Source: Minisyncoccota bacterium (lineage in GTDB: Bacteria; Patescibacteriota; Microgenomatia; UBA1400; PJMF01). From it: 64,000 nucleotides of DNA. Position numbers and translations under genes: made by a program. Positions 21,438 to 42,745 of the stretch are shown here, in pieces; positions within the stretch are counted from its first letter, which is position 1; each line of letters opens with the position of its first letter. Location of the stretch: positions 42,074-106,073 of the forward strand of contig JAACWQ010000004.1 in assembly GCA_009991965.1 (NCBI GenBank), in the 5' to 3' direction. The notes under the pieces were generated by a model that had not been told where the DNA came from, did no database searches, and worked only from the letters and a program-made list of their open reading frames with translations.

Positions 21438-22418
21438 TCAGAGTCCCATTTTTTCTTTTACTTCGTTGAGCGTTTTGCGTGCGACGGCTTGGGCTTTGGC
21501 AGCTCCAGTTGTAATGACTTCGTCGACAAATTTTGGGTTGGCTATAAGCTCTTGTCGTTTTTCTTGTAGTGGCTGCAGCTCTGCAAAAATGCTGGCTGCC
21601 AACTCTTTTTTGAGATCTCCATAGCGGATACCTGTGCCTTCATACTGTGACGCATATTCTGCTCGCTTGTCTGCACCAGAGAAAAGTTCTACAAATTGCA
21701 AGAGATTCTTCACTCCTTGCGGCATAGTCTCTACGGTTCCCGTTCCACCGTCAGTTGGCGCTGCTTTGAGCCTCTCGAGAATTTCTGCTTCGGTATCGGT
21801 CAGGGAAATGTAACTGCCTTCGACACTTTTGCTCATCTTGCCAGTACCTTGCAGTGATGGCACATACTCACCTTTGGTCGCAAAGCGCGTTGGTTCGGGG
21901 AAATCGGTGTCATACGCCTCATTCATTTTTCGCGCTATCTGGCGAGCAATTTCGAGGTGTGGTTCTTGATCGATACCAACGGGTACCAAATTTGCCTTGT
22001 ACAGCAAAATATCTGAGGCCATCAATAGTGGGTAATTGAGCAGCGCCATCGTAGCGTGATCGGGATATTGTTTTATTTTGTCTTTAAACGTCGGCAGATG
22101 CTGCATGCGGGCAATGCTCATGACCGAGGAAAAGAGAAAAGCCAATTCGAGGTGTTCTCCCACCATGGACTGCAAAAACAACGTCGAGCGTTCTGGATCA
22201 AGGCCGGCTGCCAGGTAATCAACAATCACCTCACGGCGATTTACACGCAGTTCGTCGATATCGTAAGGAGTAGTAATAGTATGGACATCGGCCACCATAA
22301 AAAAGGTGTCAATCGCTTGGTCTGCTTGCACGGCAAACATACCTTTGACCGCACCGAGGTAATTACCAAGATGCAAGCGACCGGTGGCGCGGATACCAGA
22401 GAGAACAGTCTGTTTCAT
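21438..22418 (-). CDS. trpS: tryptophan--tRNA ligase
   Basis: Class I motifs HLGNYLGAV and KMSKS. Confidence 0.9.
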   Translation of the reverse strand: MKQTVLSGIRATGRLHLGNYLGAVKGMFAVQADQAIDTFFMVADVHTITTPYDIDELRVNRREVIVDYLAAGLDPERSTLFLQSMVGEHLELAFLFSSVMSIARMQHLPTFKDKIKQYPDHATMALLNYPLLMASDILLYKANLVPVGIDQEPHLEIARQIARKMNEAYDTDFPEPTRFATKGEYVPSLQGTGKMSKSVEGSYISLTDTEAEILERLKAAPTDGGTGTVETMPQGVKNLLQFVELFSGADKRAEYASQYEGTGIRYGDLKKELAASIFAELQPLQEKRQELIANPKFVDEVITTGAAKAQAVARKTLNEVKEKMGL

Positions 22419-22456: not shown

Positions 22457-23323
22457 TTACAACTCTTCAATTCGAATATTTGGCTCCATATCTGGAGCTT
22501 CGATCAATTTGAGATATTTTTCGGTAGTAGTGATACGTTTGTGACCTACCAGTTGGGAAACATACACGAGTGGTGTACCAGCCTTGAGCTGCTCAACGAC
22601 AAAGGTGTGTCGCAAGTCGTTGACTTTCGCACCACGGATTCCACCTAGGCGGAAATAGCGATCAATAGCGGTACGGATATTACGAACGAGGAACGGTCGG
22701 CATGTTTTGGTCAAAAACAGTGATTTTTCTCGTGCTCTCGGTCTCATCTGCATATATTCCATAAGCGCGTGCTTGGCTGCTTGGTTTAATGGAATACGTC
22801 GACTACCACGTGAGTTTTGCGGCCGAATAGTAATTATGTTACGATCAAAGTCCACGTCCGATAGTTCGAGTGCTGCGAGCTCACTGATACGCATACCTGT
22901 CTGCAACAACAACTCTACGACCGCATACATTCTTGCATCTGCGCGACACGCATCACGAAGTGCTCGATACTCCAATTTTGACAAAATCCGTGGTGGATTT
23001 TGGTCATACTTTGGATGAGAAACTTGCTCTGCTGGATTTTCGATTGTGCTGTCAGTACTAGAGACGTAACGGAAAAATGCTTTAATAGAATTGATTTTTC
23101 TAGAAATTGATTTACCGGTGTATCGCTGCTTTTTTAATAATTCTTTGAATTCGTTGATGTCATCTGGGATAACATCAGTAACCATGAGTCGCTGTTTCTT
23201 TGCCTCAAACTCAATGAGCTGCTCAATATCTTTGCTGTATGCAATCACTGTGGCATGGGCTTTGCCCGTATCCTCCAAATGTGAAACAAATTGCGTACGC
23301 GAAGTAGTTAGCGGTGTACTCAT
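22457..23323 (-). CDS. tyrosine site-specific recombinase, XerC/XerD-like
   Basis: N-terminal SAM-like domain; C-terminal catalytic region (HTFVVEQLKAGTPLVYVSQLVGHKRITTTEKY). Confidence 0.8.
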   Translation of the reverse strand: MSTPLTTSRTQFVSHLEDTGKAHATVIAYSKDIEQLIEFEAKKQRLMVTDVIPDDINEFKELLKKQRYTGKSISRKINSIKAFFRYVSSTDSTIENPAEQVSHPKYDQNPPRILSKLEYRALRDACRADARMYAVVELLLQTGMRISELAALELSDVDFDRNIITIRPQNSRGSRRIPLNQAAKHALMEYMQMRPRAREKSLFLTKTCRPFLVRNIRTAIDRYFRLGGIRGAKVNDLRHTFVVEQLKAGTPLVYVSQLVGHKRITTTEKYLKLIEAPDMEPNIRIEEL

Positions 23324-23433
23324 GGAAGCTACCTGTCAGTGATGTATACTTTTAACATGAGGAAACTTGATACAGCACAATATTTCTTTTACTTGGATCC
23401 TCTAGGGCTTATAGTAACATTGGCTAAGATTAT

Positions 23434-23796
23434 TTGCAAATGAAAAAAGTTCTCTCAAATCAAGTTGTTTTGCTCGGATTTGCTCTTTTTATAACTTTCA
23501 CCGTGTTCTCAATGAGACAAAGTAGCAAGAAAATAATCAATCAGGATCAAAACCTACAACAAGTGGGTCAAATAAATCAAGAAATTCGACAAGAAATTTC
23601 TGGTTTAGAAACAAAAATTACCACGGTAACCAGCGATTTTTCCAAAGAAAAACGTCTGCGAGATGAGTTATTGCTCCAAAAACCAGGTGAATATATCGTA
23701 TTGCTTGATGAAAGTGAGTCAGAAGAGTTGGAAGTTACTGTGCCACAGAACGCTGAAACGTCTGTTTGGGAGCAGTGGCGAGCGGTGTTGTGGTAA
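23434..23796 (+). CDS. FtsB/DivIC-like septum formation protein (tentative)
   Basis: N-terminal TM helix followed by a coiled-coil segment. Confidence 0.35.
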   Translation: MQMKKVLSNQVVLLGFALFITFTVFSMRQSSKKIINQDQNLQQVGQINQEIRQEISGLETKITTVTSDFSKEKRLRDELLLQKPGEYIVLLDESESEELEVTVPQNAETSVWEQWRAVLW

Positions 23797-23850
23797 ATAA
23801 TAGTATATTTAGTATATTGTTATTTTGTATATCTTTGATATATTGAAAAT

Positions 23851-24276
23851 ATGCTACAAAGAATCGAATCTCTTTTCAGTCATCGACCTGCCAACCAAGT
23901 GAAGGCTGGAGGTGAGGAGGCAGTCTCTCCCTTATTTAACTTCGATGGCTACCCGCAAGAAGTTAGAGATTCGTTTCTGACTGAAGCTGATGCAACTGCT
24001 GTAGATAGAATTGTCGCACATCTTCGTGAAAGTGAGGAAACTCCCAAGGCTATTCAACTAGAACATACCAATACTGGAAGTTGGGTCCATCTTGCTTATC
24101 TTGGTACATCAATTGGAGTAAACTGGGCAAATCCCCAAAAATATCCTAAAGATTATCCAGAATATGAAAGAACATACTATGGTCCAATTGGACCTAAAGA
24201 CGTCCAGACTAGAAGAGCAAATTTACTCAGTGTAAAACTTGGTATTCCGCTAGAAACTACAAACAAGCGTTACTAG
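23851..24276 (+). CDS. hypothetical protein
   Basis: 141-aa ORF, no recognisable motif. Confidence 0.4.
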   Translation: MLQRIESLFSHRPANQVKAGGEEAVSPLFNFDGYPQEVRDSFLTEADATAVDRIVAHLRESEETPKAIQLEHTNTGSWVHLAYLGTSIGVNWANPQKYPKDYPEYERTYYGPIGPKDVQTRRANLLSVKLGIPLETTNKRY

Positions 24277-24296
24277 CTTGTTTCCGACGAGATGTC

Positions 24297-24953
24297 CTAT
24301 TTCGCCCGAAGTTTCCCAATGATAATTACGTTGGCATTTGCAAACGGATAGTTGTACTTTGGCATTTTCTTGAGCACTCGCTTGTCTACCTCCAACCAAG
24401 AGTTAAAGACTGTCTTGCGCTGCAGGAAAAAAGCTTTATCAAACGCAATCTTGTTCGTTCTTAAATGCTCATCTAAATACAGATTATATCCCAAAGGAAG
24501 AGTAATAAATACAGTACCACCAGGCGCAAGTAAAGATTTTAGATGTTCCAATGCCCGAGGAATTTTTTGCTTATTCTTGACTTTTTCATCCCAACCCACG
24601 TGTTCTAAAGTAGAAATTGAGACTATCAGTTTAAATTTTTTTGAACTCTTAAAATTAATCACATCTTTGTTGATTACACCTGGAGCTACTTCATACTTAT
24701 CAACAACTTGATGACTGATCGGAAAATAATGCGAAAGGACATTGCCAACTTCTAGCACCTCACTGCTTTGGTATTTTTGAACTTCTGCCCAAGCGATCGG
24801 CAACTCAACTGCACGCTCATTTATGTGAGGCGAATTATATTTATGACAAAAGTAGTGATACTGTTTATTTTGAAATCTAAAAGTTCGCAGTGGCTGCACC
24901 AGCTTGTGAATGAAATAGCTTTTATTTATCCTGGCAATAAGTTGTTTTAGCAT
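24297..24953 (-). CDS. class I SAM-dependent methyltransferase-like protein (tentative)
   Basis: VLEVGNV (motif I-like), ISTLEHV, PGGTVFIT. Confidence 0.35.
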   Translation of the reverse strand: MLKQLIARINKSYFIHKLVQPLRTFRFQNKQYHYFCHKYNSPHINERAVELPIAWAEVQKYQSSEVLEVGNVLSHYFPISHQVVDKYEVAPGVINKDVINFKSSKKFKLIVSISTLEHVGWDEKVKNKQKIPRALEHLKSLLAPGGTVFITLPLGYNLYLDEHLRTNKIAFDKAFFLQRKTVFNSWLEVDKRVLKKMPKYNYPFANANVIIIGKLRAK

Positions 24954-24964
24954 ACTTTCTTTAA

Positions 24965-25243
24965 CTAACTATGATGAACTGTATAATTCTGCAACAGCAC
25001 GCTATACATCAAATACTTCTCTGCTGTTTGTAACGAAGTTTCTTGTTCGGTATCCCCTCTGACATCAGCTGCAATATTTTTGATATACGCTGCTTCTTCA
25101 CAACTTTGCAATTGCAATGCCCATCGCTTTGCTTCAAACAAAAATCGTTGCGCCGCAGTGGTAGAGCCTCTCTGGGTAAGACTCGCCACTCGTAGCAAAT
25201 CGCTTGAGAGCGAACCTACTAACAAACGCGTGTCGTCTGTCAT
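24965..25243 (-). CDS. hypothetical protein
   Basis: 92-aa ORF, tightly packed with same-strand neighbours. Confidence 0.3.
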   Translation of the reverse strand: MTDDTRLLVGSLSSDLLRVASLTQRGSTTAAQRFLFEAKRWALQLQSCEEAAYIKNIAADVRGDTEQETSLQTAEKYLMYSVLLQNYTVHHS

Positions 25244-25578
25244 AAAATACTCGCAAAAAAATACTCAGTGAGTTCTCGATATTGTTTGCGAATTTTTTCG
25301 CTTTGAATGTCATTTTTTGTGTTGTCGTCTCGCGGCCTAATGTTTATAAACGAACTAAAATCAATTTCCTTTGTTTCAAGATCGATTCCCCCTCCCCAAA
25401 TATTCCTCTGCTTAGATCCCTGTTGCAGCAATAATTGTTCACCTTCAAAGTGTCTATTCATGCCAGCAGAACAAACTTTATTCTCAAGATCAATTACGGT
25501 TTTGATATATACCTCAAATTCTGCTGCCAGCTGATCAATTTGTTCTATAGAAAATGGTTGCGATTGCGTGATAATCAT
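25240..25578 (-). CDS. hypothetical protein
   Basis: 112-aa ORF, 4-bp overlap with the downstream ORF. Confidence 0.35.
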   Translation of the reverse strand: MIITQSQPFSIEQIDQLAAEFEVYIKTVIDLENKVCSAGMNRHFEGEQLLLQQGSKQRNIWGGGIDLETKEIDFSSFINIRPRDDNTKNDIQSEKIRKQYRELTEYFFASIL

Positions 25579-25583
25579 CTGGC

Positions 25584-26156
25584 TTATGATAACAGATCAT
25601 CAGCGACTGCCTTCATATGCTCTTCAATAAGTCCCCTCAAAAAAACAGAACGAGGAATACGTTTTTCTCGAGACACCTTGTTGAGATACTCCCCAATTTC
25701 TGGCGAAATATAAAAATCAAAGCGTACGTCTTTGTTACCCTTTGCATACTCGAGTGCTGAAGCCAAAATCTCTTCGAGCGTTTCTCGATCGTATGCGAGT
25801 ATGACAATCTTATCGCTTGCCGAACTATCAAGCATAAAAGGCTTTTTGCCATCCGTGTACAAAACAATGACTTGCTTACCAAAATGTAACGCTTGGTTGA
25901 TGAGATGACCTACGCCAAGGCTTGGGTATGTTGCCTCAAATATACAAACCTCCGCCTTTTTGATGGCTCGGATAGTATCTTTGTAGTATTTTTTTCGCTG
26001 CTCAGCATCCCAAGAATAAAACTCTTCTTCGCTAATATTTCGAATCACATCATCAGTTAGATGCACCTTAACTGAATCAAAATAGTTATAAATTCGCTCG
26101 ATTTCCTGTGAGTAATCCTGCTTTGCCCTTGGAGAAGTTGAGAAGAAAATTTTCAT
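25584..26156 (-). CDS. NDT/SLOG-like Rossmann domain fused to a C-terminal ribbon-helix-helix
   Basis: Core EVCIFEATYPSLGVGHLINQALHFGKQVIVLY resembles the nucleoside 2-deoxyribosyltransferase/DNPH1 fold; C-terminal KRIPRSVFLRGLIEEHMK looks like a CopG-type RHH. Confidence 0.4.
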   Translation of the reverse strand: MKIFFSTSPRAKQDYSQEIERIYNYFDSVKVHLTDDVIRNISEEEFYSWDAEQRKKYYKDTIRAIKKAEVCIFEATYPSLGVGHLINQALHFGKQVIVLYTDGKKPFMLDSSASDKIVILAYDRETLEEILASALEYAKGNKDVRFDFYISPEIGEYLNKVSREKRIPRSVFLRGLIEEHMKAVADDLLS

Positions 26157-26168
26157 CTTTGGGTGGAA

Positions 26169-26747
26169 TTATACAGCCAACTTTGTGCCATCGATAATAA
26201 TATCGGCAAATATTTTTGGTGCGTGGTTTTTAAAATACTCTTGCTCTTCTGTCGCCCATTTTCGCCATACTGTCTCAAGCGCTGCTCTCGATTTTTTTGA
26301 TCCGTCAGCGATGTCTCGCTGAACACCTCTCTTTATGCAAAGCTCAAGCGGCGTATCCACAAATATGCCAAGTGAAATATATTGTCGAAATTCTTTGCGC
26401 AGCGCACTGACACCCTCAATTATCATGATTGGAGTAACTTGCTTCGACACAAGTTTTCGTTTCTGATCAGGATTCTCCCACCACCGTGAGCACTCATACT
26501 GCAAAGTTGTATGGCCATTTTGAATTGGTATAAAAATGGTTGGTGCCAACAGTTTCCACCACTCGAGAGGATTATCCTCACTCGCAAAGTCATCGGTCTG
26601 AATAATCTCTGCCGACAATTCTTTCGCCAATGAGTCTGCTAGTGTCAATTTGCCCGCACCACCATGCCCGTCTATACCGATAAACAAGGTGTCACCAACT
26701 TTTGGCTTTGTTGTTTTGAGCAGTTTTGTGATATCAGTTTTTAGCAT
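26169..26747 (-). CDS. P-loop nucleoside/nucleotide kinase, uridine kinase-like
   Basis: Walker A FIGIDGHGGAGKLTLADSL, then DDF and a lid region as in the uridine kinase/PRK family. Confidence 0.55.
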   Translation of the reverse strand: MLKTDITKLLKTTKPKVGDTLFIGIDGHGGAGKLTLADSLAKELSAEIIQTDDFASEDNPLEWWKLLAPTIFIPIQNGHTTLQYECSRWWENPDQKRKLVSKQVTPIMIIEGVSALRKEFRQYISLGIFVDTPLELCIKRGVQRDIADGSKKSRAALETVWRKWATEEQEYFKNHAPKIFADIIIDGTKLAV

Positions 26748-26956
26748 TGTAGTGACAATTAAAAAAATTTACTCAAAAGCAAACATGGGATATTTGTAGA
26801 TTCATTAGGCTGCCAAGCAACTTTATTTGTGTCAATTATATAGCCCGCTTTGACATAAAATCCAAAAGAATCAAACTTCGGATTCTTCTCTTTACTATAT
26901 GGGTGGTCAACCGCCAAGGCCTCCCAGACAGCTTTGCAACCCAGTTTGTTAGCCGT

Positions 26957-27286
26957 TTACTCCACAGCTTTCAAGAGGGCTTCATCAGCCCACATATTCT
27001 CAATCTCATAGTTCGATTTTGTCGTAAATTGTTGCAAAAAAAGAACGGTGCTATGCTGAGGAAATGGACCTAGATATCCAGTTGGATTTGCTGTTGTTTC
27101 CAACACTTCAAAAATTGCGAAACCAACAAGAATATCATCTACAAAGAGAACAATGTTTTTGTCGGGATATTTGACCGCAACCGCTAATTCCTGCTCTGAA
27201 ATTGCGTGTTTGCCAAACCACTTGCTATCTAATTCTGCTGCAGATGTGGTATCAGCTTCCCGCAATGATCTATGAGAAAAAATCAT
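26957..27286 (-). CDS. hypothetical protein
   Basis: 109-aa ORF, 4-bp overlap with the PIN gene stop. Confidence 0.3.
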   Translation of the reverse strand: MIFSHRSLREADTTSAAELDSKWFGKHAISEQELAVAVKYPDKNIVLFVDDILVGFAIFEVLETTANPTGYLGPFPQHSTVLFLQQFTTKSNYEIENMWADEALLKAVE

Positions 27287-27732
27287 ATGAGTTCGCCCTC
27301 AGAAGCTACTGTTTCTAAAAATGCTTTTGGTGAAATAATCCGAAGCTTCTTTAAGCTAGGCTCACTAGCCAAAACAAGCAAGTCACGATCTCCCGAAATC
27401 AAAAAGTCAGCTTTCGCAGACAGAGCCAAATCCAATAAAAACTGATCTTTTGGATCACGAACTCGTAGTTCGTTAGATTTTAAAACAATTTTCTTCCCTC
27501 TTTGTTGTAGTAATTCGATAAGTTTGTGTACGGAGGTATTAGTCAGATGGTACCTCGTTTTGATTTTTTTTCGGTTCAAAACGTTGATTATTTCATTAAG
27601 TAACTCGTCACTCAATGCTAGTTCAATTCTCGACTTTTGCCACAATTGTATGATCTTGTACGGATGACCGCTTGGAACAATGAGTCCACTTATGAATACA
27701 TTAGTATCAATTATTACTAGAGGTTTTTTCAT
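27283..27732 (-). CDS. PIN-domain toxin
   Basis: LVIIDTNVFISGL, acidic residues at PIN positions, DFLISGDRDLL. Confidence 0.6.
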   Translation of the reverse strand: MKKPLVIIDTNVFISGLIVPSGHPYKIIQLWQKSRIELALSDELLNEIINVLNRKKIKTRYHLTNTSVHKLIELLQQRGKKIVLKSNELRVRDPKDQFLLDLALSAKADFLISGDRDLLVLASEPSLKKLRIISPKAFLETVASEGELI

Positions 27733-28006
27733 AACGTCCAAGTCTACTGGACTCTACCTCTTGTGAAATTTCACGAAAAGCTGCAACAGCAGCAAGATCT
27801 TTATTTTTGGTACGAATTGACTCCAAAAATGCAAAAGACTTAAGGCGCTCGTACTCATCAAGCAGCTCAAGACTAATCATGGCTAGTTGTGATTGGCTTC
27901 GGTTCATGACAATGACGGGTCTGTCAGAATTTTGAACAGTTGCGACAACATCTTTATACTGTCTTTGTACGGATCTAATTGAAACTGTCTTGTTAAGATA
28001 AGGCAT
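27707..28006 (-). CDS. Phd/YefM-family antitoxin
   Basis: Pattern VSIRSVQRQYKDVVATVQNSDRPVIVMNRSQSQLAMISLELLDEYE; overlaps the PIN gene start. Confidence 0.55.
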   Translation of the reverse strand: MPYLNKTVSIRSVQRQYKDVVATVQNSDRPVIVMNRSQSQLAMISLELLDEYERLKSFAFLESIRTKNKDLAAVAAFREISQEVESSRLGRYEKTSSNN

Positions 28007-28026
28007 AGCCCTATGATAACATTTGT

Positions 28027-28281
28027 TTATTTTTTGTCAATCATTTGTCTGACAAACTGCAACTTTATCTCCCTACTCCAACTTTTAATCTCGTATTCTC
28101 GTTTGAGCGCTTCGCTTCTTGTGCCAACTGCTTCCAAATAGACTTGCCGTACTGGTTTGTGTGAACGTGTGTAGTGACCACCTTTGCCCACAAGGTGTTC
28201 CTGAAATCTTCTTGCTGGATCGGTGGAAATGCCAGTGTAGAGCGTGCCATCTGCGCACAAGAGAATGTAAACGGACCACAT
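28027..28281 (-). CDS. GIY-YIG nuclease superfamily protein (YhbQ/UPF0213-like)
   Basis: VYILLCADGTLYTGISTDPARRFQEH...GGHYTR...KREYEIKSW. Confidence 0.75.
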   Translation of the reverse strand: MWSVYILLCADGTLYTGISTDPARRFQEHLVGKGGHYTRSHKPVRQVYLEAVGTRSEALKREYEIKSWSREIKLQFVRQMIDKK

Positions 28282-28290
28282 AGTTGTTGC

Positions 28291-29625
28291 CTAACGATCA
28301 AGTAACTTCATAATCCTCTGCCCTGTATACAGCTCTGTGCCAAACTTGTTGCCACTCGCTTCCTTTTCAAAAAGAACAAAACTGCTGATCGATAGTACGT
28401 TTATCGAAACAAAAACTCCGACAAATATCCAGAGAATGATCTTCGAGTATCGCCCCTCAATCCATTCGAGTATTTTAGCAAGCAGTATTAAAAAAAGTGG
28501 CAGTGAAGAAATAAACATTCTGCCGCCGTAGGCCGCCGCTTTCCAACCACCTTGTAACACGATGATTGCGTACTGAAAACAGAAAAAGATGAAAAGTACT
28601 TTTAGAAAGTAATCCAATTTCTTTTTATACGCCAAACGAACAAACAGAGCTGCAGATACAAATAGAATTGGCGTTCTGGTAAATAAACCATTGGTGAAGT
28701 GAAAAAGTGTTCCAGCCAAATCTCTCATCGAACTTTGACTTTGTTGAGCGGTCATCCAAAGGAAATATGGGTGAGAATCAAATGTATCAAAAGTAGTAAT
28801 CCACTGCAGTACGAGTGGTAAAAACATTAGAAATTGTATTCCAAAGAATACAAAAAGATTTTTTAGTATCTGTTGCCAATGACTTTTATTTTTCTTGAAT
28901 AACACGGCCACAGCAACTAAAACAACTACAGAAATTACAGCGTCCTGTGGACGGGTAATGCTCAGCAAACCAGCAATCAACCCCAGAACAAAGTAATTTT
29001 TGGTACTGAGTCTTTGCTTTTGTTTATAAAAATAGAAGAAAAATAGTGTTGCTAAGAAAAATGAAGCAAAGTGCGAGTTGAGCACATCGAACGAACCATA
29101 GTACAAAAGATTGGTGGATAGCAACAGCAAGAGAACAGCAACACGACCGACACTTTGTTTGAAACGAAGCATCAACAGCAATTTTTCACTGAGCCATGCT
29201 ACTGCTACAACGTACAGAATCGCACCTACTCCAGACAGCATTTGGTATGTATCTGAGTAGCCAGTGCGAGCAAGCGATGCTCCAAAAAAATTTGCAACCA
29301 CAACTACGCCATCTGCCAGAGCGTAAAACGGTAGCAGTAGTAGTGCCGTCCCAGGAGAAAAATGGTTGAGCGCTTTTCCTTGTGAATTTGTCCCAACAAT
29401 CTGCACTATAGGAGAGCTAAGAGGTCGCTGCGAATTATTATTTTCGTGGTTATAGATGTGCCTGTATTCATTGGTAAAATCATTGTCAGCGTCAAAATAC
29501 CAAGAATGCAAATACGCGTAGTACCCTATGCCATCTCCATAAACTGCTTGGCCGGATACAAAATAGTGAATTGAAAATATACTAACAAATGAAATAAAAA
29601 GCAGTGGGAAATAGAATTTCTTCAC
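28291..29625 (-). CDS. polytopic membrane protein, GT-C-fold glycosyltransferase-like (PMT/ArnT-like, tentative)
   Basis: About 11 predicted TM helices and an Asp-containing N-terminal loop (YFDADNDF). Confidence 0.4.
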   Translation of the reverse strand: MKKFYFPLLFISFVSIFSIHYFVSGQAVYGDGIGYYAYLHSWYFDADNDFTNEYRHIYNHENNNSQRPLSSPIVQIVGTNSQGKALNHFSPGTALLLLPFYALADGVVVVANFFGASLARTGYSDTYQMLSGVGAILYVVAVAWLSEKLLLMLRFKQSVGRVAVLLLLLSTNLLYYGSFDVLNSHFASFFLATLFFFYFYKQKQRLSTKNYFVLGLIAGLLSITRPQDAVISVVVLVAVAVLFKKNKSHWQQILKNLFVFFGIQFLMFLPLVLQWITTFDTFDSHPYFLWMTAQQSQSSMRDLAGTLFHFTNGLFTRTPILFVSAALFVRLAYKKKLDYFLKVLFIFFCFQYAIIVLQGGWKAAAYGGRMFISSLPLFLILLAKILEWIEGRYSKIILWIFVGVFVSINVLSISSFVLFEKEASGNKFGTELYTGQRIMKLLDR

Positions 29626-40817: not shown

Positions 40818-42545
40818 ATGCAAACCAATATCAAACTTCAAAACCTTAAATGGATCATTTACTGTAGAAAAAGTACCGACACCGAAGATAAACAGATAGA
40901 ATCGTTGCCTGCCCAAAAGAAAGAATTGCTTGATCTTGCTAAACGTAGCGGATTTAATCAGATAGTAAAGATATACACCGAATCGCACTCGGCATTTCAC
41001 CCAGGTAGACCAGAGTTTAATGACATGATTGATCGTCTTTATAAGGGCGAGGCAAACGCAGTGATGGTATGGGCAGGTAATAGAATTGCTCGAAACTCCA
41101 AAGATGCTGGTAGCTTTATTTATGCGATGGATCAGGGGAAAATACTGGCCGTGAGAACTATCGGTGGCACTTACTTTAACACCCCAGACAACAAATTCGC
41201 ACTCAGCATAGACTTCACAGTTTCCAAAAAATCGTCTGATGATCTGAGCGAAGCGGTGCTCAGAGGAAATAGGGTTAAGTTTTTTGAAAACAAGGAATGG
41301 ATTGGACCAGCCAAGCAAGGCTTTATAAATTTTACCGAGCCATATACAAAAAAACGTGACGTTCAGGTCGACCAAGATAGATTCAATCTACTGCAGCTAG
41401 CAGGAGGAAAAATAGTGAGTGGCGAACTAACACCATTAGAATCACTAAATTGGCTGAATCATGATATGGGATATCGAACTCTTCCTCAGAGGAAACAAGG
41501 TGGTGGTCCACTATCAGAAACAACTTTCTATAATGTATTGTCCGATCCCTTTTACTATGGTGTCATGAGCAGAAATGTTCAAGGTGAGGTCCAAGAAGCA
41601 GAACATAAATACTCCAAGATGTTTAGCAAAACAGAGTGGGACATTATCCAGGTCAGACTTGGTAAAAAAAGCCGGTCAAAACAAAAGAAGCATGACTTCC
41701 CTTACAAGGGGGTCATGAGCTGTGGGGAGTGCGGAGGATTTGTGACGGCCGAAGAAAAATGGCAGATCATCTGTCCTGCTTGTAAAACAAAGTTTGCCAA
41801 GACCAAAAAACGCACAAGCTGCATCTCTTGCGGTTTGGAAATTGATCAAATGAAAAATCCCACTATCTTGAACTACGTTTATTATCACTGCACTAAAAAA
41901 GTTAACAAAAACTGTGCCCAGGGTTATCTTGAAATGAGCGAACTAGAACGGCAGATTGATTCGGAACTCCAGCGATTCGAGATTGACCCAGACTTCAAGG
42001 ACTGGGCAATCAACCACTTGAGTGAGCTGAATGAACACGAGTCGAAGCAAGATGAGCGAGCTACTGTACGCAATACTGGCAATTATGAGAACCTGAAAAC
42101 ACAACTTAGGCGGATGACAAAACACCGGTTCTCTGACTCGTACGAGGAATCAAGCCAAGAAGAGAAAGAGGTTTTCGAAGATGAACTAAATAAGCTCAAG
42201 GCACAAATAGAAACAACAAAAGATAGCATTAAAAATACTGATGAGAAACAGTATGATTGGATTGAGCTATCAAGGAAAACGTTCGAGTTTGCTTGTTATT
42301 CCAGATACTGGTTCCGTCACGGGGACATTAAAACTAAGACACAAATCCTCCAGTTACTTGGTCAGAACCTAAAGCTGTATAACAAGAAAGTGTTGGTAGA
42401 CGAGGATAATCTTTGGTGGCTAATTGAAAAAGCAAAGAAAGAAGTTGAAATCTTAGGAGTCAGGGTCGAACCTACAAAAAAAGCGAGTCAATCAAGCTTT
42501 AATGCCCTCTTTGATCCCGCCATTCCCACATTGTTGCGGGACTAG
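40818..42545 (+). CDS. large serine recombinase
   Basis: N-terminal resolvase catalytic domain (IIYCRKSTDTEDKQ, Ser nucleophile), recombinase domain, zinc ribbon (CGECGG...CPAC; CISCG...HC), coiled coil. Confidence 0.8.
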   Translation: MQTNIKLQNLKWIIYCRKSTDTEDKQIESLPAQKKELLDLAKRSGFNQIVKIYTESHSAFHPGRPEFNDMIDRLYKGEANAVMVWAGNRIARNSKDAGSFIYAMDQGKILAVRTIGGTYFNTPDNKFALSIDFTVSKKSSDDLSEAVLRGNRVKFFENKEWIGPAKQGFINFTEPYTKKRDVQVDQDRFNLLQLAGGKIVSGELTPLESLNWLNHDMGYRTLPQRKQGGGPLSETTFYNVLSDPFYYGVMSRNVQGEVQEAEHKYSKMFSKTEWDIIQVRLGKKSRSKQKKHDFPYKGVMSCGECGGFVTAEEKWQIICPACKTKFAKTKKRTSCISCGLEIDQMKNPTILNYVYYHCTKKVNKNCAQGYLEMSELERQIDSELQRFEIDPDFKDWAINHLSELNEHESKQDERATVRNTGNYENLKTQLRRMTKHRFSDSYEESSQEEKEVFEDELNKLKAQIETTKDSIKNTDEKQYDWIELSRKTFEFACYSRYWFRHGDIKTKTQILQLLGQNLKLYNKKVLVDEDNLWWLIEKAKKEVEILGVRVEPTKKASQSSFNALFDPAIPTLLRD

Positions 42546-42602
42546 GGGTCGAACCTAGCCTGTGAGATTATGAGCCTCACGTGCACCGTACACTATCCCG
42601 CG
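42534..42602 (-). tRNA. tRNA-like gene, anticodon CAT; C1xA72 mismatch suggests an initiator tRNA-fMet; D-loop unusually short
   Basis: Reverse strand folds as acceptor CGCGGGA/TCCCGCA, D stem GTGT/GCAC, anticodon stem-loop TGAGG-CTCATAA-TCTCA, T arm CTAGG-TTCGACC-CCTAG; 3' end overlaps the recombinase stop codon. Confidence 0.45.
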
Positions 42603-42665: not shown

Positions 42666-42739
42666 GCCAGGGTAGCTCAGTTGGTTAGAGCATGGGATTC
42701 ATAAACCCAAGGTCGAGAGTTCGAATCTCTCCCCTGGTA
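42666..42739 (+). tRNA. tRNA-Met (anticodon CAT; possibly the Ile2/lysidine isoacceptor)
   Basis: GCCAGGG acceptor, D arm GCTC-AGTTGGTTA-GAGC, anticodon loop TTCATAA, T arm GAGAG-TTCGAAT-CTCTC, discriminator A. Confidence 0.8.
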
Positions 42740-42745
42740 CACTGT

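Follow-up and report, generated by a model that had tools for sequence, protein, structure and literature searches.

A probable mosaic of independently inherited units in five tightly packed minus-strand genes of a Candidatus Pacebacteria genome

The window analyzed here is a stretch of 64,000 nucleotides from a Minisyncoccota bacterium (GenBank assembly GCA_009991965.1, contig JAACWQ010000004.1, positions 42,074 to 106,073 of the forward strand), and coordinates refer to this window unless another locus is named. At 24297-26747 it carries five packed open reading frames (ORFs), called K, N, D, S and M in the order of transcription, which a sequence-only reading had regarded as one compact operon with nucleoside- and nucleotide-handling signatures. 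Comparison with related genomes showed that the linkage of these genes, except for that of D and S, is not conserved, and the five ORFs are probably a mosaic of three or four independently inherited units in a gene-dense Pacebacteria stretch prone to insertions and deletions (indels), not one system. The nucleotide theme itself holds for K and N taken singly, and it fits the deaminase and NUDIX genes that neighbor the N family in other genomes. The five genes, whose earlier coordinates proved exact, are as follows.

26169-26747, minus strand: K, 192 aa, uridine-kinase-family P-loop protein
25584-26156, minus strand: N, 190 aa, DNPH1/NDT-like domain fused to a ribbon-helix-helix (RHH)
25240-25578, minus strand: D, 112 aa, DUF5674 protein
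24965-25243, minus strand: S, 92 aa, four-helix-bundle protein
24297-24953, minus strand: M, 218 aa, class I methyltransferase-like protein (weak match)

Profile searches have upheld the earlier assignments of K as kinase-like, of N as a DNPH1/NDT-like domain with an RHH and of M as methyltransferase-like, the RHH match of N itself lying just below the cut-off and the methyltransferase match of M being marginal. Both small proteins had been thought to lack a recognizable domain, which is right for S, for which Pfam, NCBIfam and the other sequence searches made gave no match, and wrong for D. Adjacent genes are separated by 12 nt (K-N), 5 nt (N-D) and 11 nt (S-M), and D and S overlap by 4 nt (ATGA). 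Since the genome is 92% coding and its same-strand gaps have a median of 20 nt, with 45% of them at 15 nt or less, four consecutive tight junctions are weak evidence of an operon. The string also does not start at K, as had been supposed; it begins at a 444-aa gene and continues through GIY-YIG, Phd and PIN genes and a split ORF X, making ten minus-strand genes in total through M.

Gene order in related genomes

Exact matches of N, K, M and a 141-aa ORF next to M (orf141) were found in a Candidatus Pacebacteria metagenome-assembled genome (MAG) belonging to the Microgenomates of the candidate phyla radiation (CPR), and four independent assemblies share 4.5-5 kb of the locus at 100% identity. 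The loci fetched from other genomes are cited below by the letter L and a number. In L009/L010, which have the closest N (75% identical), the order is GIY-YIG-N-D-S, with neither K nor M. Because the GIY-YIG gene of L009/L010 is orthologous to the copy in the window (66% identity), the Phd-PIN-X-K block is an indel between GIY-YIG and N. Further relatives of N, in L011 and L012 (73% and 68%), are accompanied by neither D-S nor K.

The sister genome L029, whose D is 94% identical, keeps the 444-aa gene, GIY-YIG, Phd, PIN, X and K as well as D-S, and codons 1-165 of its N were removed by a clean deletion of about 500 bp. Codons 166-181 are left just after the K stop (7918-7965 of L029, 94% identical), which shows that N was recently lost in this sister lineage. 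M and orf141 are replaced there by a different 91-aa ORF (L029 8617-8892); M is absent from L009, too. The only other relative of K recovered, in L031 (66% identical), stands in the order Phd-PIN-K, with the PIN stop overlapping the K start and with unrelated flanks. K and M were found in none of the fetched flanks (about 5-6 kb or less on each side) of the other N-family and D loci examined, the exception being L029/L030, where K is kept and N lost, and none of K, D, S and M occurs within about 6 kb of N homologs at 40-56% identity. The pairing of K with N is lineage-specific and dispensable. In contrast to the other genes, S directly follows D in all 16 loci of a scan that used one genome per GTDB species (Pace-, Woese- and Daviesbacteria) and also in L009 and L029, and no other neighbor is common to these loci.

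Gene order is therefore not conserved for the five as a unit: D-S is the only conserved linkage, and K, N and M vary independently. From L009/L010, L029, L031 and the D loci, we distinguish four units, namely Phd-PIN-X-K, N, D-S, and M with orf141. The first is a type II toxin-antitoxin pair followed by a divergent gene of the nucleoside kinase family; in this strain, K has a Ser34Leu change and X is broken by a stop codon. The second is likely one of the dispersed members of a large paralog family of Microgenomates in which a DNPH1-like domain is joined to an RHH. The third, D-S, appears to be an autonomous and highly conserved two-gene module, translationally coupled and with its own putative extended -10 promoter, and the fourth may have been inserted in this strain only, M probably being transcribed by read-through from the promoter of D-S. 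The earlier suggestion that the region belongs to the accessory genome is borne out by L029, with its deleted N and its lack of M and orf141.

Predicted transcription units

Promoter calls are consensus matches backed by conservation, and the following elements were found around the five genes.

25586-25594, minus strand: predicted D-S promoter, an extended -10 element TGTTATCAT that overlaps the end of N, 7 nt before the start codon of D
26168-26173, minus strand: TATAAT, 11 nt before the N start codon and overlapping the K stop; predicted N promoter
28013-28040, minus strand: sigma-70-like site (TTGACA-16-TATCAT plus TG) immediately before Phd, the best one in the region, 11 of 12 positions matching
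24261-24283, minus strand: terminator-like hairpin after M and before the convergent orf141, from the consensus scan only

The motif TGnTAnnnT begins 15-18 nt and ends 6-9 nt before the start of D in the window and in all of the 19 other D loci (L009, L013-L029 and L032), against a background of 0.0011 per position and an occurrence at a D-like distance in 6 of 69 genes of the window. This spacing suggests that the D-S mRNA is leaderless or near-leaderless. The same -10 arrangement is present before Phd (28013-28040), the TrpRS gene (21438-22418) and orf141 (23851-24276). For N, TATAAT or TATACT is located 11-15 nt before the ATG of the orthologues in L009, L011 and L012, despite their differing upstream genes. 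No such element was found upstream of K, S or M. Three transcription units are predicted from this, namely Phd-PIN-X-K, N and D-S(-M), and read-through between them is possible.

The N family

Two domains can be assigned to N.

25752-26156, minus strand: N-terminal DNPH1/Rcl-like domain (NDT superfamily), aa 1-135, from the family profile against the PDB
25602-25730, minus strand: C-terminal RHH, about aa 143-185, from RHH_3 (1.1e-3) and family-level matches

N alone matches DNPH1/Rcl structures with an E-value of 1e-4 (PDB 4fyh), and the profile of its family matches Rcl/DNPH1 in the PDB with 2e-16 over residues 3-135, the alignment having high confidence through the active-site motif. The RHH_3 match of N reaches 19.4 bits for a cut-off of 21.6; among 61 family members, RHH_3 was found in 7 and RHH_1 in 5 (best 1.9e-6), together with CopG_antitoxin, HicB-like and NikA-like matches, and almost all of the family share the RHH residues R145, F146 and R174.

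Active-site columns were compared in an alignment of 154 family members with rat Rcl, the key part of whose sequence is printed in the PDB alignment. E93 of Rcl (in GVGYELG), the catalytic Glu nucleophile, aligns with high posterior probability to L85 of N (in GVGHLIN), and the family has 61 Leu and 57 Glu in this column. The column of the catalytic D69, confirmed by the mutant PDB chains D69A and D69N, is T61 in N and Asp in none of the 154 members, and that of the catalytic Y13 is F4 in N (73 Phe and 63 Tyr in the family). As for phosphate binding, S87 of Rcl aligns to S79 of N (Ser in 134 of the 154), and the N-terminal S-x-R loop is kept as S8 and R10 (Ser in 105 and Arg in 71). The contact made by S117 is not kept, the position being P106 in N and Pro in 122 members. 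Since all three catalytic residues are gone and phosphate-binding ones are kept, N would most likely bind a (deoxy)nucleoside monophosphate, leave it uncleaved and act as a DNA-binding regulator through a dimeric RHH. Alternatively, it may be a non-catalytic partner of Glu-bearing paralogs. Judged from its sequence, N is a putative nucleotide-binding regulator or pseudoenzyme.

A profile search of a library of 50%-identity representatives gave 1404 clusters at E<=1e-3, of which 784 reach E<=1e-10. The best 150 matches are nearly all 180-195 aa long and span both domains, and the DNPH1-like-RHH fusion is therefore a large family without its own Pfam model. Homologs with 40-56% identity to N form arrays of 2-5 paralogs with PF00383 deaminase, NUDIX or SAM_HAT genes, and the arrays in other genomes combine Glu-type and Leu-type copies. 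Seven of ten distinct contexts adjoin pilMNO, most of them with ribosomal protein S16 and RNase III in the fetched flank. The locus that recurs in other Microgenomates holds a PF00383 gene (TadA/dCMP-deaminase-type), 2-5 tandem or facing paralogs and a NUDIX gene, next to pilM/N/O, rpsP and RNase III, and examples are listed here.

L037, 3334-6524: recurrent N-family locus, with a Glu-type paralog at 3835-4404
L038, 3427-5579: recurrent N-family locus
L003, 4401-8225: recurrent N-family locus
L005/L007, 6001-7780: recurrent N-family locus

No relative of N was found in the scans of viral contigs, and a literature search found no paper on NDT and RHH fusions or on DNPH1 in Patescibacteria.

K and its link to N

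K passes the Pfam model PF00485 (PRK/uridine kinase) with 35.2 bits for a cut-off of 22 (E 1.5e-8), and its PDB matches are 1rz3, uridine kinase, UCK2 and NRK1. It falls far short of all NCBIfam equivalog cut-offs, with 44.8 bits vs 220.3 for udk TIGR00235 and 57.5 vs 173 for PRK06547. It has a DDF motif after the P-loop, as in Udk/NRK1. The Walker A motif reads GHGGAGKLT and does not match an intact GxxxxGK[ST], because Leu replaces the Mg-binding Ser (codon 34, TTG, 26646-26648). The sequence of K, including Ser34Leu, is identical across four assemblies, and the relatives in L029 and L031 lack this change (GAGKST and GSGKST). In this strain, Ser34Leu is likely to abolish or alter the binding of Mg-ATP. 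Pseudogenization of K was also considered: the ratio of nonsynonymous to synonymous substitution (dN/dS) is 0.15 in the comparison with L029, where dS is close to saturation, and K therefore has no general signal of decay, the Walker A change alone standing out.

The genes upstream of K in the same unit are as follows.

27707-28006, minus strand: Phd antitoxin gene (PhdYeFM 4.4e-5)
27283-27741, minus strand: PIN toxin gene (PIN_3 5.5e-22)
26759-27286, minus strand: ORF X, between PIN and K, with an in-frame TAA at 26957-26959

The order Phd-PIN-(X)-K is present in all three K-bearing genomes (window 26169-28006, L029 6075-7912, L031 896-2182), and these genes may constitute a three-gene cassette of a toxin-antitoxin pair and a P-loop kinase, seen in three related genomes. 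The stop that divides ORF X into 26957-27286 and 26759-26917 is identical in four independent assemblies, and its orthologue in L029 (6795-7325) is intact with 176 aa. Pfam, NCBIfam and PDB searches gave no match to ORF X, even for this intact form. An impression by eye that it is a GNAT protein had no support in these three databases, and we do not claim it.

Several observations weigh against the mosaic reading and against the regulator role of N. Since the N remnant follows K in L029, the adjacency of K and N is ancestral to the lineages of the window and L029, and a local functional link between the two, both of which point to nucleoside or nucleotide chemistry, is conceivable. The adjacency N-D-S recurs in L009/L010, and the ten co-directional genes have no convincing internal terminator, so that read-through across all five is possible. 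The linkage of Phd-PIN-K rests on the three K-bearing genomes recovered, which are few and related. As for N, its RHH beta-strand, which reads the DNA, hardly differs from one paralog to another, whereas diversified transcription factors usually vary there; a search of eight N-family upstream regions for shared 9-mers with one mismatch found only A-runs in common; and another catalysis, with H84 or the invariant E74 taking part, is conceivable.

A first alternative is that K and N form a small self-regulating salvage module, in which K phosphorylates a (deoxy)nucleoside and N senses the monophosphate and regulates through its RHH, with D, S and M as bystanders. CPR bacteria depend on nucleotide salvage. 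The place of K in the nucleoside kinase superfamily, with its uridine kinase and NRK1 structure matches, the retained 5'-phosphate-binding residues of N, the ancestral K-N adjacency and the deaminase and NUDIX genes next to the N family elsewhere all favor such a module. Against it, the adjacency is limited to this lineage, L029 lost N and kept K, the Walker A Ser of K is Leu in this strain, and the operator search was negative. The co-occurrence of the kinase and the NDT-RHH fusion in other genomes had been proposed as a check; among the loci recovered, N stands without K in L009, and K without N in L031. We consider this module unlikely. Among the three functions offered by the sequence-only reading (defense or toxin system, modified-nucleoside pathway and salvage module), it is nevertheless the closest for N alone, whose family elsewhere lies near PF00383 deaminase and NUDIX genes.

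The D-S pair

D matches Pfam DUF5674 (PF18924) with 65.8 bits for a cut-off of 27 (E 4e-18) over residues 7-102, the profile length being 109. Its homologs number 2809 clusters, of which the best 120 are at least 71% identical, nearly all exactly 112 aa long and all assigned to DUF5674. The polar residues C36, R42, H43, E45, E47, D66, D73, R81 and K88 are invariant and suggest that D is an enzyme or has a specific site for binding. The alpha/beta fold of D had no match in the PDB. S has a predicted four-helix-bundle structure (AF2, pLDDT 90), which gave generic helical-bundle matches only. A literature search found no paper on DUF5674.

The pair could also be read as toxin-antitoxin-like, with the whole stretch as a chain of addiction modules. 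The genes are small, overlap by 4 nt, move together among unrelated neighborhoods and have their own predicted promoter, and a genuine Phd-PIN pair adjoins the stretch. This reading is very unlikely. D is more conserved than is usual for a toxin-antitoxin component: the identity is 62-77% across Pace-, Woese- and Daviesbacteria at a uniform length of 112 aa, and dN/dS against L029 is 0.03 (dS near saturation). In addition, neither D nor S was found to resemble known toxin or antitoxin families or folds, and a single D-S copy is present per fetched locus (about 5 kb on each side). D-S would behave as a constrained housekeeping pair, not as a toxin-antitoxin pair.

Two observations concern the records in which D was found. 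The sole match on a viral contig is L032 (IMG/VR UViG_3300008255_004742, 37 kb), in which a D homolog 76% identical is located at the extreme contig end; either the contig is of CPR origin and was wrongly classed as viral, or the end may mark the border of a prophage. Six of the 16 D-S loci (L013, L016, L018, L019, L020 and L028) are titled 'uncultured Pseudomonadales bacterium'. Since their GC content (34-40%) and gene content are Microgenomates-like, these labels of MAG records are probably wrong.

M and the question of a defense system

M is annotated by NCBI as a class I S-adenosylmethionine (SAM)-dependent methyltransferase. It passes Methyltransf_23 marginally, with 27.7 bits for a cut-off of 27 and over residues 83-167 only. 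Its Gly-rich motif is degenerate (VLEVGNVLS, with a single Gly, motif I being E/DxGxGxG), and comparison with PDB sequences gave nothing below E 0.2. At 90% identity M is a singleton cluster. Together with the convergent gene listed here, it is strain-specific.

23851-24276, plus strand: orf141, 141 aa, convergent with M

The kinase, the N-glycosidase-like domain of N and the methyltransferase could together be taken as an anti-phage defense or toxin system, placed in a defense or toxin-antitoxin island, by which the nucleotide pool is depleted or modified. Phd-PIN and GIY-YIG genes are nearby, the neighborhoods of relatives hold BrnT/CopG, further PIN pairs and transposases, the region has indels between close genomes, and weak ThsB_TIR matches were obtained in 3 of 61 N-family members. 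Matching of the five ORFs to PADLOC models gave nothing significant: K had P-loop-only matches (E 0.003-0.02), M had a weak mad2 match (E 0.006), and N, D and S had none. The scan against PHROG gave no support, and apart from the one D match no relatives were found on viral contigs. The effector residues of N are missing, the N family and D-S are widespread, with D-S under strong purifying selection, N-family members stand beside pilMNO in most contexts, and the genes of this set do not stay together across genomes. A defense function, which had been one of the earlier proposals, is therefore highly improbable. A pathway for modified nucleosides or DNA, made of the kinase, a DNPH1-like hydrolase of the 5-hydroxymethyl-dUMP type and the methyltransferase-like M, is the least credible, since its cues (N matches that include DNPH1 structures annotated as 5-hydroxymethyl-dUMP N-hydrolase, and a sub-threshold match of K, E 0.21, to the 5-hydroxymethyl-deoxyuridine (5-hmdU) DNA kinase family) meet with 11.5 bits for a cut-off of 27 in the latter match, the missing catalytic residues of N, the singleton status and degenerate SAM motif of M, and the lack of joint conservation of kinase, N and M.

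Flanking genes and RNA elements

Outside the five genes, two further features complete the description of the neighborhood.

28027-28281, minus strand: GIY-YIG gene, within the ten-gene string
22457-23323, minus strand: Xer-type recombinase gene, in the flank beyond M

The stretch had been placed between a Xer-like recombinase gene and a PIN/Phd pair. These flanks are as described, and the genes are not immediate neighbors: a DivIC-like gene and orf141 lie between M and the recombinase, and the split ORF X lies between PIN and K. No gene of the region is more conserved relative to L029 than that of the recombinase (97% amino acid identity, dN/dS 0.02), which adjoins TrpRS and FtsH genes; the protein looks like a chromosomal XerC/D-type enzyme and not like the integrase of a mobile island. 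A scan for repeats in 23300-28400 gave chance-level pairs only. An Rfam scan of the window detected just two tRNA-Met genes, away from the five ORFs. This divergent tRNA-Met (CAT) pair, 63 nt apart, is at 42533-42602 (minus strand, 42.8 bits) and 42666-42740 (plus strand, 69.5 bits).

Significance

The five-gene system should not be carried forward. Because nearly half of the same-strand gaps here are as tight as those of the five genes, the use of tight packing as operon evidence over-calls systems in CPR genomes. Two findings of interest lie outside the earlier claim. One is the large unnamed DNPH1-like-RHH family, with about 1400 clusters at 50% identity and with arrays of Glu- and Leu-bearing paralogs; since CPR bacteria probably subsist on nucleotides that they scavenge, a set of pseudoenzymes and enzymes could help to handle or sense deoxynucleotides. 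The other is the pair of DUF5674 and a four-helix-bundle protein, which is strongly conserved, has a predicted leaderless-type promoter and is without a structural relative in the PDB.

A joint reading of these findings can be offered tentatively, although we consider it unlikely. The N family would be CPR one-component nucleotide-responsive factors that have not been described, in which a DNPH1-derived pocket senses (deoxy)nucleoside monophosphates, catalysis has been lost in about half of the paralogs, and the signal is passed through the RHH. Dead and active paralogs would cooperate beside deaminase and NUDIX genes in the control of nucleotide scavenging, and K-N of the window would be a dispersed kinase-plus-sensor offshoot. 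In parallel, an enzyme pair conserved in Microgenomates, with a fold new to the PDB, would be made up of DUF5674 and the helical protein encoded next to it.

Comparison with known systems

D is a full-length and high-scoring member of Pfam DUF5674 and does not differ from this family, which is itself uncharacterized. What is new for DUF5674 is the absence of a fold match in the PDB, an obligate partner gene for a four-helix bundle, and a conserved extended -10 promoter, as predicted. K shares with uridine kinase, NRK and PRK06547-type kinases the passing of the Pfam PRK threshold and the structure matches to uridine kinase, UCK2 and NRK1, and it differs from them in scoring below all NCBIfam equivalog cut-offs, in its GAGKLT Walker A and in having Phd-PIN as its genomic partner.

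Compared with RHH proteins and antitoxins of the CopG/Arc/MetJ type, the last approximately 45 residues of N fit the strand-helix-helix pattern (DVRFNFxISP...YL...PRSVFLRxLIE). The RHH of N, however, is located C-terminal of an enzyme-like domain and not at the N-terminus of an antitoxin, N has no adjacent cognate toxin, and its DNA-contacting strand is near-invariant with no shared operator detected. As for DNPH1/Rcl (2'-deoxynucleoside 5'-phosphate N-hydrolase, of the nucleoside 2-deoxyribosyltransferase or NDT superfamily, PF05014), the N family aligns over the whole of its about 135 N-terminal residues with DNPH1 of rat and human, shares the hallmark motif (A/F)E(V/A)(T/S)xPS(L)GVG and the N-terminal S-x-R phosphate loop, and 31 of 61 members match PF05014 singly. 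The differences are that N has Leu for E93, Thr for D69 and Phe for Y13, that it carries a fused C-terminal RHH, which DNPH1 and NDT enzymes lack, and that its family occurs in arrays of 2-5 paralogs in which Glu-type and Leu-type copies are mixed.

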